This document shows, one piece after another, positions 5,652-36,121 of a stretch of DNA of 36,121 nt. Below the pieces are notes generated by a model that was not told the DNA's origin, ran no database searches, and saw only the letters and a list, made by a program, of their open reading frames with translations. The DNA comes from a virus (taxonomy: Duplodnaviria; Heunggongvirae; Uroviricota; Caudoviricetes), in IMG/VR virus record IMGVR_UViG_2778261180_000005; one strand, given 5' to 3'. The position numbers and the translations under genes are program-made. The first letter of the stretch is position 1, and each line of letters begins with the position of its first letter.

Positions 5652-6335
5652 TTAAACGTATTTCATGCGCGATTTAATGTGCTTATTGATGTTTTCAAGC
5701 ATCATTGCTTCGTTGCTTTCCCACGATCCTAGCGTCGAATAACGAGTAGAAATTTTATCCGATTTAACGGCAACAATTCGCTTACTCTGTTTCTGTATGC
5801 GTTTCTCTAAGCGACGTTTTGCCACCGCCGATCCATTCTTAGCGCGTTTGGTTCGGGATTTCTTAGGCTTGTACTTCTTCATGATAAAAGTCCCTTCCTT
5901 GTTCTCTACCTTGATGAAGTTGCCATTTTCGATGTTACGCATCATCTTACCGCCTTTGATGGCCTTAATGTTCCCGTGGGAGTCTAAGACCTTGCCGTTA
6001 GCGATTGGAACTAGCTTATTGATTTTGCCACCATCGAAATAGTGTTTCAAATAGTCGTCCTGACTTCCGATCTTCTTGTCCTTATCCCTTGCGCCCTTGA
6101 TGAAGATTTGGTGTCTGGTCCCTGATCGGTTCTTGTAGTTGGTATTACCTACAGCTTGCTGAGTCCAGCGAGTAGGTCTATCAACATTCTTGTTAATCTT
6201 CTTCTGGAGTGCTCTGGAAGCAAAGATCGCCCCTTCCCCTATCGCCCTTTCGAATGTATCGGTTGCCTTTTCAGACCATTGCCGTAACGCTTTCTTAGTC
6301 CTTAGAGCGTTTCGTTTATTGGTACTGGTTGCCAT
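5652..6335 (-). CDS. hypothetical basic protein (227 aa), possible virion/morphogenesis protein
   Basis: Lys/Arg-rich ORF. Its start follows the stop of the upstream mini-ORF by 1 nt. Function not recognisable. Confidence 0.6.
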   Translation of the reverse strand: MATSTNKRNALRTKKALRQWSEKATDTFERAIGEGAIFASRALQKKINKNVDRPTRWTQQAVGNTNYKNRSGTRHQIFIKGARDKDKKIGSQDDYLKHYFDGGKINKLVPIANGKVLDSHGNIKAIKGGKMMRNIENGNFIKVENKEGTFIMKKYKPKKSRTKRAKNGSAVAKRRLEKRIQKQSKRIVAVKSDKISTRYSTLGSWESNEAMMLENINKHIKSRMKYV

Positions 6336-26539: not shown

Positions 26540-28444
26540 TTAGAACGATGTTACCCAACTACGGCCTCTATTTGGACGTCTGGCGATGTTTTTACGTTGT
26601 GGTCGTGTGATTGGCTTAGTTTCTTCGATTTTCTCGTCAGATTGCGATTTAGGAGCTTTTACGGGTTCTTCGACAACACGGTTTAAGCTGTCTTTCATTG
26701 CAATGAGTTTATCCCATGACATTTTTGAAAGGACGTAGCGAGAAGCCGCTGTAGCATACACGGCGCAGTCGAGCGCCTCGTTCCTAACGCCTGGGTTCTT
26801 TACCCATCTCACGCCAGTAGTAGTACGCTTGACAGATTCACTTAAAAGCTGATCGAGATAATCATCAGGAACGGTGTCTGATATTTCTAAGCCAATATGA
26901 GGATTATCTTTCAGGTTCCTAGCCAACATTTCACGAAATGCAGTTTTACCCACATTAACACCCAACATAAGCAATTCATGACCACCTGTGCGGGTAGGTT
27001 TAACCGGAATGATCGGAGCGTTACCAGCAGAACTACCTTTGATAGCGTGTAAGTTCTTCCACTTGCCGCAAATACGGTATCCAGCTTGAGTGAATCGACC
27101 GTTCGATGTATCAAGGAAGCTGGCGAGCATAGGAACACGATCACCCGATACAGTAGTAAATTTGGTTTTATGGAAGTTGATTAATCTATCCCATACAGGG
27201 GATTCATATCGTTCACAGTTATGATCGTAAAAGCTGCGATGATCCAGAATATAAATCTTATCCTTTGCCACGCCCATGATTGTAGTTTCTGCGCGATCTA
27301 ATTGCTGGTCGGTACCCGCACACAAGAAAATCACGTCATCAGGGATATTCTCGATAGAAACATCTGTTTTTAGTTGTTCCAGTTCATTTGCTTCTACTGC
27401 CGTGTCCTGATCGTCGTATACCTTGCCTAACACGGTGTTATAAAATGATTGTAAATCAAAGGATTGCCACGCATGGCTAAAATCAACCACACAAGCGCGG
27501 ATCGTGCTGAAAGGTGAATACAGACGGCTGATCCAGAATCCTGCTACCTCACTTTCACGGGTTGCTCTCCACTCGCCTTGTGCTACTGCCCTGATTCGTT
27601 CCCCTTCGGTCCATGCGTTCTTACAGTGGGGGCAAATATAACGAGCGGTATCAGGATCGGGTAAGTTCTTACCATCGATGTTACGCCATTCAAATTGAAC
27701 GTTTTCCCACTCGATCACCTGGTGTTCCCCGCAATGAGGACACGGAACAAAAAACATACGCATATCACTTGATAACCATTGCTGGTTAATGCTTCCGAGC
27801 TTACTGGTCGGGGTACTGGATACGACTAATCGGCCTTCATCGCCAAAGGTAGTTAAACGGTTAGCAGCCAGTGCCACCGGATCACCTTCTTCTGAGGCTG
27901 TAGCAGCATCGATTTCGTCAAGCAATCCAACCTTTGCGGTCTTACCGCGTAGGGTTGATGGACTAGTAAGCGATACCATATAAAGGAAGTGGTTTGATTT
28001 GAGCTGGAGCTGATTGTTGTTATTAACAGAATTGCGATCATTCTTGTCTGTAACCACGTCTTTTAATGCATCACATGCTTCGATAGACGGTCGGATCTTA
28101 CCCGCGAGATATTGAGACATTTCTTTAGCGGTTGATTGTCCGATAATCATATTGCATGGATCGTTAGCCATCTGGTTAAACAGGATACCGTTTAGGATGG
28201 TAGTTTTTCCGATCTGCGCACTGGTCATCAGTACATACTTTTTCTTATTCTCAAGGAAAGGAGCATCAATCATGCCTTTCTGGAATGACAGCAATTTAAC
28301 TTTATCCCCCGCTTGAGGACCATCTACCAGCACCATATTCGCTTCGCACCATTCAGAAGGAAGGAGTTTAGGCGGTGGCGTAATATATTTGGCTGCATTT
28401 TTGAGAATCTTTTTTAATTTGGCCTTATTAGAAATCAGTTTCAT
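26540..28444 (-). CDS. terminase large subunit, lambda gpA type (634 aa)
   Basis: Walker A SAQIGKTT, Walker [11 protein letters not shown], paired CxxC motifs (CPHCGEHQ ... CPHCKNAW). First gene of the late operon. SD GAGGGT. Confidence 0.95.
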
Positions 28445-28529: not shown

Positions 28530-29132
28530 ATGCTAATTAATCAGCAACAAAGAGATGAATTAGAATTAGCCTTGTCTTGTACCGATCATGAATATCGTTT
28601 ACCAGTTAAGCATAAGCATTTAAAAACCGACTACACAACATCTGGCTTTAGTCGTGAGGAAGCGAAAGAGATTTTAATAGAGTTTTACCGCGATAATGGT
28701 TATACAGACGTTCACAACTTCTTTAAGAAGCATAGAACATCACATACAGAGTTTCGGAGAGTCCGAGATTGGTTTGATTTTGATATCAAGCGTTATTATC
28801 GAGTGGATGACGGTCCTATCTATCGGTTGCAGTGGACACCGATCAGGGAAGTGTTGAAACAGAAGAGATTGAATCACGCAATTACACGCTATCGTAACGA
28901 GGCTTTCAAGAAAGGCTATGGTGATACAAGGGAACTATTCGTTGAACTCGCTAACGTGCGTTATAGCCACTATTACAACGATCCTAAAGGGTTCTTTGAA
29001 GTGCTTCGCAAGGTTGATATAAGTCGGGGTACATACTATTCACGGTTGAAGAAGTACGGGATTAAGGCAGAGTTCTTTATGAGTATTGACGATGGAGAAC
29101 TTTTTCCGATAAAATGTAAGTCCTCTAAATAA
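28530..29132 (+). CDS. DNA-binding protein with two tandem copies of a ~55-aa HTH module (200 aa)
   Basis: Internal duplication. The second module, [30 protein letters not shown], matches the 75-aa and 60-aa proteins. SD GGGGGG. Confidence 0.7.
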
Positions 29133-29166
29133 AGGTGAACATTCACTTTAATTTGGAGAAATGACT

Positions 29167-29394
29167 ATGACTACTAAAGCTACTCGCGGTCGTCCTTGCC
29201 GTTTTAACGCTGAACAGATGGCTGATATTGCCTACGCTTACTATACAGCGGATCGTGGTAAGGAAGCGAAAGAACAGATTCTTAGTGAACATGGGATCTC
29301 AATCGCCCAATTCTATAAGAATATGAAGAAGTTAGACATTAAATTCTATGTTCAGATCGGTGATGGTCAGATCGTAGAAGCAACAGGTTTTTGA
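29167..29394 (+). CDS. small HTH protein, paralogue family (75 aa from ATG 29167)
   Basis: RGRPCRF...GISIAQFYKNMKKLDIKFYVQIGDGQIV. GGAG lies 8 nt before ATG 29167 but only 2 nt before ATG 29161. Confidence 0.7.
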   Translation: MTTKATRGRPCRFNAEQMADIAYAYYTADRGKEAKEQILSEHGISIAQFYKNMKKLDIKFYVQIGDGQIVEATGF

Positions 29395-31260: not shown

Positions 31261-31356
31261 AGTGGAAATCCTCTAAAAGAAAGTGAATCAAAGTAAGTTC
31301 ACTATTATTTATAACGAGAAATTTTTGTCTAATTTGAAAGGAATTGGTATTCAGTC

Positions 31357-31858
31357 GGCTTCGCCTCCTTCATAGATTTTGATTAAATCATCATCAAAAC
31401 GAAGAAGTATCTTTAGAATATAAGAATCTTTCTTTTGGAGAAATAATAATCCGGAAGCAATTTAGCAACCGAAGGTTGCAATCCCGAAGGGATACCAATA
31501 CCTTTCATGATCATTAAAGTGATCTAGAATCATCTAGTAACCAGTTAACTACTATTATCTTCAAAGTGATTATTACTATCTTTCTAGAATCAGTTAGTAA
31601 CTAGTTTAAAATCCCTTTCAAGAAAATCCTTTCAGAAGTGATTCTCGATGCCACGCAGTGGCGTCGCAGACGTTTGAGAGTGAGCGAAGCGAGCGAGCAA
31701 ACTAGTTAATTCCTTCTAAGACCATCTAGTATCATCTAGTTTAAATTAGTGTTACTAGAAGTAATTGGTTAGCGCTTCGCGCAGTCGGGCTACGCCCTCC
31801 TAATATCTTTTTGGTTATTTGTTGTTTTTGGTTTTACACATGAGCGTAGCGAATGTGT
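31357..31858. repeat. cluster of G/C-clamped mini-hairpins with trinucleotide GNA (or complementary TNC) loops
   Basis: GGC-TTC-GCC 31357. GCAACC-GAA-GGTTGC 31465. ATCCC-GAA-GGGAT 31481. GATGCCAC-GCA-GTGGCGTC 31647. GC-GAA-GC 31684. GCGC-TTC-GCGC 31772. GGGC-TAC-GCCC 31787. ACACAT-ga(GC-GTA-GC)ga-ATGTGT 31836. Confidence 0.75.
31523..31606. repeat. two copies of a 24-bp CTAG-rich repeat exactly 60 bp apart
   Basis: TCTAGAATCATCTAGTAACCAGTT (31523-31546) and TCTAGAATCAGTTAGTAACTAGTT (31583-31606), 21/24 identical. Related CATCTAGT motifs at 31724-31740. Confidence 0.75.
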
Positions 31859-31890
31859 TATATAATATCTATGCACGCCCGATCCCCCGC

Positions 31891-32133
31891 TTTTGCCCCT
31901 CACTAAGTTAATGTTTTATAAAGAGTTTTTCTCACCAATCCTTTTCGGGGGCAAATTTCAGGGGCAAAAATTAGATTTTCAGGGGCAATTATTGGCATTT
32001 CAGGGGCAAAAATGAGGGGCAAAATCACTGTTTCCCAGAATTTCAGGGGCAAAAATAGTGGGTTTCAGGGGCAAAAATGGGATAGTGAAATCTAGGGGAT
32101 TTTGGTTCAGGGGCAAAATTCAGGGGCAAATTT
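31891..32133. repeat. iteron array: nine direct copies of (T)TTCAGGGGCAAA(A) plus one inverted copy
   Basis: GGGGCAA cores start at 31948, 31961, 31982, 32003, 32016, 32046, 32068, 32110 and 32123. The inverted copy is at 31893-31899. Confidence 0.9.
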
Positions 32134-32135
32134 CA

Positions 32136-32185
32136 TAGTGTAGGGCTAGTGTAGGTTTGAAAATCCTTTGTTGACACTGTGTAGG
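32136..32185. promoter_or_regulatory. three GTGTAGG operator-like repeats around the promoter
   Basis: TAGTGTAGG at 32136-32144 and 32147-32155. TGTGTAGG at 32178-32185, inside the -35/-10 spacer. Confidence 0.6.
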
Positions 32186-32199
32186 ATCGGTGGTATACT
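32171..32199 (+). promoter_or_regulatory. near-consensus sigma70 promoter with extended -10
   Basis: TTGACA (32171-32176), 17-nt spacer, TGgTATACT (32191-32199). Confidence 0.8.
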
Positions 32200-32465
32200 T
32201 GAAAATTCGAGATAAATATGTTATAATATTTGTATTGAAAGTGAAAATTTACCGATTTTCCTTCCTATTGTTATCACTGTGTTAAATTGTTATATGTCTG
32301 TGAAGATTTGGATCTGAGAGAAAATCTTGTAACAAATCTTTACAATTCATAGCTCAATTAATGCTCACCGCTTTAGCAAAAAGTGCTATGCCTTTTTCTA
32401 AATTGATTGAATAAACATCAATTTGGTTAATTCGTGTTCTTCTCTTTAGCAATTCGTGCTGCGGT

Positions 32466-32512
32466 TTAACACATTTAACACGCCTGATAACATCCAAATA
32501 ACATTTTAACAT
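32466..32512. repeat. five phased (T/A)TAACA(C/T) repeats in AT-rich DNA
   Basis: TTAACAC at 32466 and 32475. ATAACAT at 32487 and 32498. TTAACAT at 32506. Spacing is 8-12 bp. Confidence 0.5.
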
Positions 32513-32591
32513 ATCTCTGTTCTAAATACATATATAAGAGATAAATGTGAGGGGTTGAAAAATTAAAAACAATCCCCATATAAATAATAGT

Positions 32592-32612
32592 GAGCGGTTA
32601 ACGCTCTTTTTT
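32592..32612 (+). terminator. short terminator/attenuator at the end of the untranslated leader
   Basis: GAGCG-GTTAA-CGCTC followed by TTTTTT. Lies 35 nt before the start of the 60-aa HTH gene. Confidence 0.55.
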
Positions 32613-32647
32613 AAGAAATCATTAATCCAGATTTAGGAGGATTCAAG

Positions 32648-32830
32648 ATGGCACGACCTGTTAAGTTCACTCGTGAAATCGTTTTAGAAATGGCAAAGCG
32701 TTATTTTGAACTGACGCCTGATGTAGTGATTGGTGAATGGTTTAAAGGTGAAGGTATTGATCAATCAACCTTCCACAAACTCTTAAAGAAGTATGACATT
32801 AAAGTAAAGATAACCGCAGAGGTTTACTGA
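32648..32830 (+). CDS. small HTH protein, paralogue family (60 aa)
   Basis: ARPVKFTREIV...GIDQSTFHKLLKKYDIKVKIT. Strong SD AGGAGG. Confidence 0.75.
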   Translation: MARPVKFTREIVLEMAKRYFELTPDVVIGEWFKGEGIDQSTFHKLLKKYDIKVKITAEVY

Positions 32831-32942: not shown

Positions 32943-33884
32943 ATGTTATTTTCCGCTAACTTTTTCACTAACGAAGTAACCAACGCTAAAGCAGTTATCA
33001 AATTTGGCACCGAAGCAAACAAGAAGATTCAGCCGAAAGTTGTTGCTCATGTTTCCTTTGCGCAGCAGAAATCCGCTTTCGCTGGCTTTAAAGCACATCG
33101 TGAAGCACTGATCGCGGCTGGCTTTGGTGTTGACGGTAAACTGCCTAACGGCATTCGTAAAGCAATCGACCGCGTTAAACCTGCTAAAGACGTTGCAGTA
33201 GACCACATCGTTACTTTTACCGTTAAGAACTCTTCTGAACTGTTCCACCTGGTTATTGCTGGTGATACTGCTATCGTTTCCGCTCCTAACATGGATTTTC
33301 AGGATACCGCTGATTGCCAGATCACCTTCGGTCGTCGTAAAGAAGTTACCGGAAAAGCTAAACTGAACTTCACTAAATCCGGCAATCCTTACTTTGCTGT
33401 TTTCTTTAACAGCCACGCTACCGAAAAAGAAGTTGTAGAACTGGTTGCTTATGAAGGTGAAGAGAAAGAACGTATTGAATCTTGCGAAGCATTTCTGGAA
33501 CTGGAAGCACAGGTGAATGCTGTTTCTCCGGTTGTTGAAGATCGCTTTGCTGCACTGGAAGCACAGATCGCAGAACTGAAAGCTGCACTGGAAGAAAAAG
33601 ACCAGATTATCGAAGCACAGAAAGCTGAGATTGAAGAACTGAAAGCTAAAGAAGTTGCTCCGGTAGCAGTAGTTGAAAACGCGGCTGATGAGGCCGCAAA
33701 TGATGAAGTAGAAGTGAAAATCGATGTGATGCGTGATCCGATGGCTGCACTGCAATTACTTCGTTCTTTTAAGGGCAAATCTCATTTTTCTAGTGATGTA
33801 GAAGATGAGGAAGAAGAACAGAAACGCAATGCTGCAATGCTTCATGATGAAATGTACGGTACTAACTTTTCTTACTGCCAATAA
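32943..33884 (+). CDS. abundant-expression-type protein of unknown function (313 aa): globular N-domain, coiled coil, acidic C-terminus
   Basis: SD AGGAG. Codon choice is dominated by E. coli high-expression codons (CTG, GAA, AAA, CGT, GGT, GCT). Coiled coil FAALEAQIAELKAALEEKDQIIEAQKAEIEELKAK. Confidence 0.85.
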   Translation: MLFSANFFTNEVTNAKAVIKFGTEANKKIQPKVVAHVSFAQQKSAFAGFKAHREALIAAGFGVDGKLPNGIRKAIDRVKPAKDVAVDHIVTFTVKNSSELFHLVIAGDTAIVSAPNMDFQDTADCQITFGRRKEVTGKAKLNFTKSGNPYFAVFFNSHATEKEVVELVAYEGEEKERIESCEAFLELEAQVNAVSPVVEDRFAALEAQIAELKAALEEKDQIIEAQKAEIEELKAKEVAPVAVVENAADEAANDEVEVKIDVMRDPMAALQLLRSFKGKSHFSSDVEDEEEEQKRNAAMLHDEMYGTNFSYCQ

Positions 33885-34547: not shown

Positions 34548-35105
34548 TTAAGACACATCAAATTCATCGTCTTCTTCTGGTTCTTGTTCTTCCGGTTCAT
34601 CCATTAATGGTAATTCTTCTTCCTCGTCTTCTCCCAAATCTGCATTTTCGAACAAGTCCCCTACTTCATTTAAACGACGCTCGATAATCTCCCTTAGCTT
34701 ATTCTTTAATGTTTTCTGGTCAGTGGCAGATTCGAGAATTTCTAAAGCGTCGATTGTGGCGATCTGCAAAATAGTCTGCTTCACTTTCCCGCAGTATTCC
34801 GCTAGCTCCTGCTCCACATAACCGACGGGAATCAGGAGATTCATTTTTTCCTGGTTCTCTCGTTCGATGGCGTCCGCTAATGCTCTTTCTCTGCGGAGAC
34901 GTTCTTGATCAATCGCTTCTTTGATTGAAGTTTGTTTAAGTGGGTTAATTACGTTCTTTAGCACCCAATCGCAACCTTCCTTTGCTGGTACACGACGCGT
35001 GTGGGTGTTCATCGGTAGTCCCCTTTCTAACCATCGCTTACCGCCACCATTCAATGTATAGCCATATAAACGGGAAATTTCTGTAAGGGTTAATTCTTCT
35101 TTCAT
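34548..35105 (-). CDS. putative terminase small subunit, Nu1-like winged-HTH protein (185 aa)
   Basis: The N-terminus LTLTEISRLYGYTLNGGGKRWLERGLPM...VPAKEGCDWV parallels lambda Nu1 (KKQLADIFGASIRTIQNWQEQGMPV...). Coiled-coil middle, acidic tail. SD GGAGGA. Confidence 0.55.
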   Translation of the reverse strand: MKEELTLTEISRLYGYTLNGGGKRWLERGLPMNTHTRRVPAKEGCDWVLKNVINPLKQTSIKEAIDQERLRRERALADAIERENQEKMNLLIPVGYVEQELAEYCGKVKQTILQIATIDALEILESATDQKTLKNKLREIIERRLNEVGDLFENADLGEDEEEELPLMDEPEEQEPEEDDEFDVS

Positions 35106-35401
35106 TGGTTATCCTCCATTAAATTTGCGTAATTTTATTTATTGGTTTTACGCAAAATCTAAGCGCCTAAATCGCATTCTAACGAAGGGAAAGATCCAGT
35201 AATGGTAAGGGTTAGGAAGTGGGTTAATAGTCGCGTAGCGACCGCGCCATGAGTGAAGTGATCACGTTTTAGATCCTGACGCGCACATCAAATAACGGGG
35301 TGCCGAAAACTCGCTTTATTTCACCCGTGGAACAGTACCTTTTGATTTTGTCAAGTCTTTTTTATAAATAATCGAAAATATTTTTCACGCGAGGGCAAAT
35401 C

Positions 35402-35770: not shown

Positions 35771-36121
35771 TTATTGGGGTTTACAACATTTAGGTTTGCC
35801 AATTCGCCTGGCTAACTCTTGCTGAGTGATTTCTGACTGTAAAAAAGCATTTAACAGCAATACTTTAGAGGCGACGCTCAAAGGTACTTCAATAAAGTGA
35901 TCATGACTATTTAATGGCGAAGGTAACGGGATAAGCTCGTTATCTTCAAAATAAAAATCAAATGCGGTCAGTAAAGCATCTTTTGCCGCTTCCATCGCTT
36001 CAGCGACAGTTTCGCCCTGCGTCAACGCTTCAGGGATATCCACAAAAGAAACCATATAACCGCCTTCCGGCGCGGGTGTAAGAGTGACGGGATAACGCAT
36101 AATTTCGACTGTCTCTCGCAT
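35771..36121 (-). pseudogene. hicB: hicB antitoxin gene truncated by the phage insertion (HicB residues 1-104 plus 5 phage-encoded codons CCKPQ)
   Basis: MRYPVTLTPAPEGGYMVSFVDIPEALTQGETVAEAMEAAKDALLTAFDFYFEDNELIPLPSPLNSHDHFIEVPLSVASKVLLLNAFLQSEITQQELARRIGKPK matches E. coli HicB as I recall it. The native protein continues QEITRLFN...; here it continues CCKPQ-stop. Confidence 0.85.

Follow-up and report, generated by a model that had tools for sequence, protein, structure and literature searches.

A conserved array of phased repeats in an E. coli prophage co-varies with an orphan phage protein: a possible origin and initiator

Analysed here is a DNA stretch of 36,121 nucleotides (IMG/VR record IMGVR_UViG_2778261180_000005, hereafter the window) that comprises a whole E. 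coli prophage (~36 kb, 40% G+C) integrated in hicB; our subject is an array of short direct repeats in its early-like region. The nine-repeat array is real and conserved, and we take it to be functional. New here is its pairing with an orphan protein family, represented in the window by a 313-residue protein that we call p313, in at least six specificity classes. Sequence comparison is best explained if the array, the non-coding "left block" beside it (31583-31943) and p313 make up a "specificity cassette", in which the array would serve as the multi-site recognition element of p313. We also favour, with confidence somewhat short of even, the reading that the array and p313 are a phage replication origin and its initiator, iteron-type in layout and with a new kind of initiator; the physical binding, DNA opening and origin function that this entails are inferred. 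Loci other than the window are cited by our L numbers where they must be told apart, and the central features are as follows.

31944..32131, plus strand: nine direct repeats, core AGGGGCAAAA, E. coli unit TTCAGGGGCAAAA
31891..31903, minus strand: single inverted copy, GTGAGGGGCAAAA, with a 40-bp AT-rich stretch between it and the array
32943..33884, plus strand: p313, 313 amino acids, putative cognate array-binding protein, from co-variation with the array word

Allowing up to two mismatches, TTCAGGGGCAAAA occurs ten times in the window, nine times directly and once inverted, and every copy lies within 31891-32131; chance would supply 1.28 copies (standard deviation 1.0), and none of 100 shuffles reached ten. 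The direct copies start at 31944, 31957, 31978, 31999, 32012, 32042, 32064, 32106 and 32119. A preliminary description of this DNA had reported nine GGGGCAA cores in one orientation, one inverted copy, and core spacings of 13, 21, 21, 13, 30, 22, 42 and 13 bp, all of which were borne out; a search for the 13-mer elsewhere in the window found no further copy, and arrays of varying word stand at the same place in relatives. Six copies fall on one helical face at multiples of about 21 bp and the three others make 13-bp doublets. Of 18 E. coli relatives, 5 have mutations in the inverted copy, which is present in most Salmonella loci of the GGGGCAA class (class 1). The array was also correctly described as non-coding, which bears on the idea that the repeats act as an RNA or as a translated repeat, an idea that, with the centromere-like reading discussed below, has very little probability. 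The only open reading frames overlapping the array encode 40 and 49 amino acids, the repeat spacings are not multiples of three, and the unit number, 6-9 among 18 E. coli copies, differs by whole-unit deletions that break the overlapping frames. Our promoter scan found no strong consensus promoter reading across the array, and an Rfam search of 28-36 kb gave no RNA match.

Homologues of p313 are few at the level of representative sequences, with 12 among 1.84 billion representative proteins. A first search gave only near-identical E. coli proteins, and a query with one of the 12 homologues then returned proteins from Salmonella, Providencia and Proteus. Genome contig searches with p313 and with the small terminase subunit (TerS) gave no matches, and a metagenome search gave only identical copies. 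The 313-residue sequence itself is on more than 1,000 contigs of the protein collection, and the prophage family is present in about 1% of complete E. coli genomes. Relatives share a common order, namely the large terminase subunit (TerL), small helix-turn-helix (HTH) genes, Rha, a leftward gene, 1.2-1.6 kb of non-coding DNA, a p59/60 gene, a protein of ~305-380 residues and TerS. Every relative has a phased direct-repeat array at the same place within this non-coding region, and what changes is the word, of which there are at least six (AGGGGCAAAA, CACGGACAAAA, TAGTGTAGG, CTAGGGAT, CGGGGA and TGTACA). The arrays found, by word, are these.

AGGGGCAAAA: 6-9 copies, several Salmonella and Logan contigs
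TTCA(C/A)GGACAAAA: 9-10 copies, one Salmonella phage
TAGTGTAGG: 8 copies, Providencia
GTGTAGG arrays, of the TAGTGTAGG class: 6-9 copies, L081, L149, L152-155, L158 and L162-166
CTAGGGAT, 11-bp period: 15 copies in a Proteus phage (L082) and 8 in a Logan contig (L091)
CGGGGA: at least 13 copies, one E. coli phage
TGTACA, 10-11-bp period: 13 copies, E. coli-related viral contig L171
TACTGAACC: 8 copies, distantly related viral contig L173

Spacings in the relatives are mostly 10-11 or 20-23 bp, and the Proteus array keeps a strict 11-bp period with AT-rich repeats interspersed. The window's own pattern (21-21/22-13-30-22-42/43-13) is kept in the Salmonella class-1 loci L085, L086 and L088, where p313 is only 61-69% identical. 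The iteron-type layout proposed in the preliminary description stands and is strengthened, the position of the array being conserved, its spacing kept in most same-word Salmonella relatives and its word changing with a phage protein; the binders proposed with it fail, as set out below. A search of viral contigs for the GGACAAA word gave only chance matches, and E. coli genomes held no GGACAAA-class array. In L171 two different arrays, TGTACA and CCGGGGA, stand in tandem (5750-6200). Some relatives carry an extra gene of 333-363 residues, ending PTLRLVA, after the p313-type gene (L151 2071-3072; L171 2640-3731).

Clusters of GGGGCAAAA were also seen in unrelated viral contigs (L005, L013, L023, L031; L020; L011, L014, L027, L038), in settings of quite different kinds. 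One is within a large TerS gene, in the part coding for its lysine-rich linker; another follows a P4-alpha-like primase gene and consists of five tandem units of 13 bp; in a third the clusters flank a tRNA-like sequence. The last is possibly an attachment site, and GGGGCAAAA clusters also occur at integrase arm sites. As relatives of the array we judged these clusters coincidental or unrelated, and probably independent.

Short head-to-tail repeats in helical phase invite comparison with partition sites, and the array could be a centromere-like or tethering site with p313 as a ParR/ParB-like adaptor. Phased 10-11-bp direct repeats upstream of the binder's operon recall R1 parC, the Proteus array has its strict period, and p313 has a long coiled coil. 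Against this, the prophage has no recognised ParA, ParM or TubZ-type nucleoside triphosphatase (NTPase), and the prophage, which encodes a serine recombinase, is chromosomally integrated. We accordingly disfavour the centromere-like array raised in the preliminary description and regard it as most unlikely.

Which protein goes with the array was approached through co-variation. For the gene product that follows p60, residues 1-175 were clustered and the commonest upstream 7-mer was called de novo, over 36 loci; the p313 N-domain cluster matched the array word in all 36. N-domain clusters 1-4 correspond to GGGGCAA (including a GGACAAA sub-variant, at 34% identity), GTGTAGG, TAGGGAT and CGGGGA. 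Among 5,426 complete E. coli genomes, at a minimum coverage of 80% per query, exactly the same 33 matched both the p313 N-domain and the left block with array of class 1. The E. coli protein of the TAGTGTAGG class is 61% identical to the Providencia protein with the same word, at a locus where TerS and p60 are only 52-55% identical to those of the window, and the E. coli loci that combine near-identical TerS with TAGTGTAGG or CGGGGA arrays encode, in the place of p313, a similarly built protein whose N-domain differs. Each of the two major array classes is found in combination with either TerL type, either p60 allele and several alleles of p150 and Rha, TerS being 84-96% identical throughout; p200 and p77 types likewise occur in both classes. 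The independent exchange of the intervening p60 module and of all outside genes argues for selection on the match between array and p313, short of proof. In a Salmonella Livingstone phage (L079; GCA_009283865.1) a TerS resembling that of class 1 accompanies a p313 resembling that of L087, and on this pairing a CACGGACAAAA array would be expected there. From these comparisons p313 is most likely the cognate binder of the array, in place of the earlier view that no cognate protein was obvious.

None of the other candidates shows this behaviour. Rha, which the preliminary description had listed as a possible binder, p150 and TerL do not correlate with the array word. That description had also put forward the small HTH proteins encoded on both sides of the array, which we now consider hardly likely to be the binders. 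Four copies of one small HTH-like domain are encoded there, p60 is the first gene downstream, and an N-terminal RP-x-K/R-F arm could conceivably suit an A-tract site. The p60 alleles nevertheless reassort independently of the array word, class 1 occurring with p60 100% and 58% identical to the window's and class 2 (the TAGTGTAGG class) with p60 92-97% and 55% identical; p77 is undetectable in the GGGGCAA loci L084 and L090; and p200 identity, 46-100%, overlaps between same-word and different-word loci. The domain copies themselves, in p60 (32648-32830), p77 (29161-29394) and as two tandem domains in p200 (28530-29132), are paralogous and have no family assignment.

A packaging function deserves separate treatment, as the phage encodes lambda-type terminase subunits.

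26540-28444, minus strand: gpA-type TerL, lambda-type terminase
34548-35105, minus strand: Nu1-family TerS, in the same PHROG as lambda Nu1
35231-35243, upstream of terS: GC-rich dyad GTCGCGTAGCGAC, candidate cosN

Lambda Nu1 binds repeated R sites, and the array might likewise be a cosB- or pac-like site for TerS, with cosN in the adjoining conserved block. The presence of a gpA-type TerL together with a true Nu1-family TerS speaks for this, and phrog_57 matches lambda Nu1 at 1e-76, the window TerS at 6e-10 and the relatives' TerS over its full length; an ultra-conserved block with GC-rich dyads also adjoins the array. As long as only eight relatives were compared, TerS seemed, like p313, to track the array word, both in its identity and in its putative recognition helix, a correlation that was lost with 25 more loci. 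In a search of viral contigs with TerS, TerS proved to be 87-96% identical in 12 E. coli phages with TAGTGTAGG (11 loci) or CGGGGA (one locus) arrays, so that near-identical TerS occurs with three array words counting the window's own, and TerS is therefore not the specificity determinant. The array moreover is on the wrong side of terS, at 2.4 kb past its 3' end; upstream of terS there is a separate region of 300 bp, and the dyad listed above occupies the canonical place. On these sequence grounds the TerS-binding form of the packaging explanation, also raised in the preliminary description, is largely refuted, and we give packaging as a whole scant probability.

In p313 residues ~1-170 form a beta-rich N-domain and residues ~180-236 a coiled coil, after which come an acidic linker and a C-terminal module. 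The last has at least two forms, swapped independently of the N-domain. Searches of families, PDB sequences and folds with p313 returned nothing beyond coiled-coil noise and generic beta-barrels, and it did not group with the known Rep, O or replisome-organiser (winged-helix) families.

The DNA on both sides of the array is AT-rich (68-82% AT) and contains most of the remaining features of interest.

31583..31943, no strand: class-specific left block, non-coding, directly adjoining the array in all cases
32136..32155, plus strand: two TAGTGTAGG copies, 11 bp apart, that follow the array and precede the -35 hexamer; the word is that of class-2 arrays
32171-32199, plus strand: promoter P1, TTGACA-17-TATACT, 11/12 matches, extended -10
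32199-32227, plus strand: promoter P2, TTGAAA-17-TATAAT, near-consensus sigma-70
32228..32612, plus strand: untranslated leader of roughly 400 nucleotides, minimum free energy -101.6 kcal/mol, z = -6.5 against shuffles
32592-32612, plus strand: terminator-like hairpin and T-run at the end of the leader, just before the p60 ribosome-binding site
32648..32830, plus strand: p60, small HTH-like protein, paralogous to p77 and the two p200 domains

At 94-100% identity across 18 relatives, the left block is the most conserved stretch of the region, above the flanking genes, and Salmonella, Proteus and Providencia have left blocks homologous to it. Within the window's block are TCTAG..TAGTA motifs, GC-rich hairpins, AT-rich stretches and one DnaA-box-like 9-mer at 31832. 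The stem of the hairpin cgatGCCAC-GCA-GTGGCgtcg (31646-31666) is kept through compensatory changes (GTCCC/GGGAC and cggtGTCC/GGACgccg) in L084-L087, which indicates selection on an RNA or single-stranded-DNA structure. An AT-rich element of ~140 nucleotides is conserved 3' of arrays in four different classes. No good IHF site was found around the array.

The predicted p60-p313 operon would be driven by P1 and P2, tandem near-consensus sigma-70 promoters. Overlapping the -35 hexamer of P1 is a palindrome, ACACTGTGT (32174-32182), the greater part of which (TCACTGTGT) appears again 100 bp further along, at 32274-32282; an alternative promoter module carries TTGACATGTGTCAA at its -35 (L017 near 4594-4581, minus strand). 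Judging from the relatives, these palindromes are likely operators that travel with the p60 allele, and p60 is probably the regulator of its own promoter module. The module is swapped as a unit among relatives, independently of array class, and the window's TAGTGTAGG doublet travels with the window-type version; the doublet is either a recombination remnant or a cross-class regulatory site. The leader could be an attenuator or a non-coding RNA. A strong promoter beside the array had been noted earlier and is indeed present; its adjacency is not conserved, the distance being 40 bp here and about 160-540 bp in relatives. Some E. coli relatives have a different promoter/leader/p60 module right of the array, with the promoter about 210-250 bp away, and since the module is swapped in this way we place the promoter outside the conserved unit. 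On the other side, at least 600 bp separate the array from a weak promoter-like site that would serve p150 leftward.

With these elements in hand, the reading of the array and p313 as origin and initiator can be set out. We favour it because the phage is otherwise without a candidate replication gene, no replication protein or CI-type repressor having been recognised among the scanned open reading frames of the early region and left arm, and because the anatomy is origin-like, with phased repeats, flanking AT-rich DNA, the shared ~140-nucleotide AT-rich element and the AT-rich repeats of Proteus. It is further favoured by the GC hairpins with compensatory changes beside the array, by the position of the array between divergent early promoters, and by a putative initiator gene downstream, behind a strong promoter and an attenuator-like leader. 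In lambdoid O proteins the N-domain tracks the ori repeat word and the C-terminal module is exchanged independently; p313, whose N-domain follows the word as its C-terminal module swaps, would behave likewise. Upon induction, strong transcription from P1 and P2 would pass through the leader terminator and p313 would be made; its N-domain would bind each AGGGGCAAAA unit, and the coiled coil, with the phasing of one to two turns, would let protomers assemble on one face of the DNA as a wrapped nucleoprotein complex. This complex would open the neighbouring AT-rich segment, and the exchangeable C-terminal module would bring in host replication proteins. It is also possible, with rather less confidence than for the origin itself, that p313 founds an unrecognised family of sequence-specific DNA-binding proteins whose beta-barrel-like N-domain is unlike known DNA-binding folds, and that with its phased array it defines a new phage replicon type with a single initiator and no other dedicated replication gene, exchanged as cassettes of at least six classes among E. 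coli, Salmonella, Proteus and Providencia prophages.

Several observations weigh against the pairing or the function that we assign to it. The array and the p313 gene are only about 0.8 kb apart, so linkage contributes to their co-variation, and many of the loci are close relatives and not independent. Lower variability of the repeat cores than of the spacers is no more than a trend among E. coli class-1 loci, and the difference is not significant (8/81 against 14/107 columns, p = 0.65). L171 has a CGGGGA-type array, yet the one protein of the p313 family that it encodes shares just 25% identity with that of L151, which represents the CGGGGA class; the idea of two arrays with two proteins in L171 was not confirmed, and no N-domain matching the second array was found. 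The window itself holds two "foreign" TAGTGTAGG sites, and we assume that these, like the second array of L171, are recombination remnants at array edges. The single DnaA box at 31832 is not visible by eye in other array classes. Finally, a long leader bearing a terminator, together with many specificity classes, would also suit a regulatory switch.

That switch is the main rival explanation, and one we consider unlikely without dismissing it. Here the array would be a regulatory landing pad, coated by p313 acting as repressor, silencer or anti-silencer of a lysis-lysogeny switch and controlling the divergent early promoters, and the classes would be immunity or regulatory specificities. The array does sit between divergent early operons, the leftward p150-p51-Rha and the rightward p60-p313; no conventional CI-type repressor was found in the prophage; many specificity classes among otherwise similar prophages are what immunity regions would lead one to expect; and the gene for p313 shares its operon with that for a small HTH protein, the promoter ahead of both being strong and apparently regulated. 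The geometry fits less well, since the array never overlaps a -35 or -10 hexamer, the rightward promoter is anywhere from 40 to about 540 bp away and the leftward one is distant, and the promoter module owns palindromic operator-like sites that move with the p60 allele and not with the array. Polylysogens speak on both sides. Five E. coli genomes match a left-block-plus-array query twice, and just one of the five has two class-1 p313 genes, the other four having one; these are small numbers. The exception, strain BS74R-D (NZ_CP063332; L174), has prophages of this family at two chromosomal sites, 12.6-15 kb and 415-428 kb, that do not differ in their class-1 array or in p313, which would be unusual for an immunity determinant. 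Neither the varying promoter distance, nor the separate palindromes, nor the two-cassette genome is decisive against the regulatory explanation.

The prophage's interruption of hicB leaves a truncated antitoxin gene beside an intact hicA (35771-36121 and 1-40), and near-identical copies (L001, L002) sit in hicB of strain ETEC1717 and in ycdX of strain KSC64. The gene order runs from the large serine recombinase (995-2689), presumably the integration enzyme, through lysis, tail and head genes and TerL to a 7-kb early-like region and TerS; within the early-like region p200, p77, Rha, p51 and p150 are followed by 1.4 kb of non-coding DNA (31261-32647) and then by p60, p313 and p94. The terS gene is 6 kb from terL in a separate transcription unit, which differs from lambda. 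A PADLOC search for defence systems gave no match, and a literature search found nothing on the repeat words, the protein accessions or a hicB prophage.

Cultured phages and plasmids gave no DNA match to the prophage except for one element of ~80 nucleotides. This (31369-31451) is 76-81% identical to unannotated intergenic DNA of RB49/Krischvirus T4-like phages, at 1-3 places per genome, and is flanked by an inverted repeat (31335-31371 / 31471-31507); it may be a shared mobile promoter or stem-loop cassette. The best TerL match among cultured phages, at 45% identity, is from Escherichia phage DCP80 (L073, PQ671644). In this 141-kb "T4-like" record positions 1-26300 are a siphovirus module related to the prophage, with a TerS-like protein 31% identical, and T4-type genes follow; the record looks like a chimeric assembly.

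The pairing of array and p313 offers a first testable handle on replication or switching in these phages, whose early region consists of unannotated genes. The natural specificity classes could explain the compatibility of co-resident prophages, and the pairing also points to a putative DNA-binding domain, the p313 N-domain, missed by current family and fold libraries. If p313 does prove to be an initiator, a 2.3-kb fragment would constitute a new minimal replicon with ready-made orthogonal variants.

Comparison with known systems helps to place the proposal. Lambda cosB (R1-R3) and Nu1 share with this phage a Nu1-family TerS, a gpA-type TerL and repeated sites in a conserved non-coding region, and differ in that the array word here is independent of TerS and the array is not upstream of terS. 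R1 parC/ParR, pSM19035 omega and the P2 Cox and 186 Apl arrays likewise have short head-to-tail repeats at about one helical turn near the binder's operon, bound cooperatively into a filament or wrapped complex. Their binders, however, are ribbon-helix-helix or HTH proteins of 70-120 residues that act at sites overlapping promoters or attP, and an NTPase is required in the par systems, whereas here the protein has ~313 residues with a coiled coil, promoters are not overlapped and no NTPase is present.

Also comparable are origins with iterons flanking an AT-rich segment by a rep or primase gene, as in Staphylococcus aureus pathogenicity islands and other phage-inducible chromosomal islands (SaPI/PICI) and in P4-type elements. 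Repeat clusters of 6-13 bp broken by AT-rich DNA, as in the Proteus relative, and classes matched to the initiator are common ground; the initiators there are helicases or primase-helicases, of which none is encoded here. Iteron plasmids and P1 (pSC101, F, R6K, RK2, P1 oriR) offer the same succession of AT-rich DNA, two-turn direct repeats, rep promoter and rep gene, and a putative initiator of about the same size (~35 kDa). Plasmid iterons are 17-22 bp long, regularly spaced and read by a winged-helix-pair Rep, in contrast to the 9-13 bp units and mixed 11/13/21-bp spacing here, where in addition the repeats do not enclose the promoter, p313 has no recognised fold and the DnaA box is not conserved.

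The lambdoid ori/O systems (lambda, 434, phi80, P22 gene 18) provide a further comparison. Lambda has four dyad-symmetric 19-bp iterons inside the O gene, whereas the arrays described here lie outside any gene, some 0.8 kb upstream of that for the putative initiator, and comprise 6-17 direct repeats that are short and asymmetric; p313, unlike lambdoid O, has a long coiled coil and lacks similarity to O and replisome-organiser families, and no P, DnaB or DnaC-type partner gene is present. The likenesses are nonetheless several, namely multiple phased sites with A-tracts beside AT-rich DNA, an N-domain that co-varies with the repeat word and is joined through a flexible acidic linker to a C-terminal module exchanged on its own, strong early transcription nearby, and specificity classes distributed among mosaic relatives.

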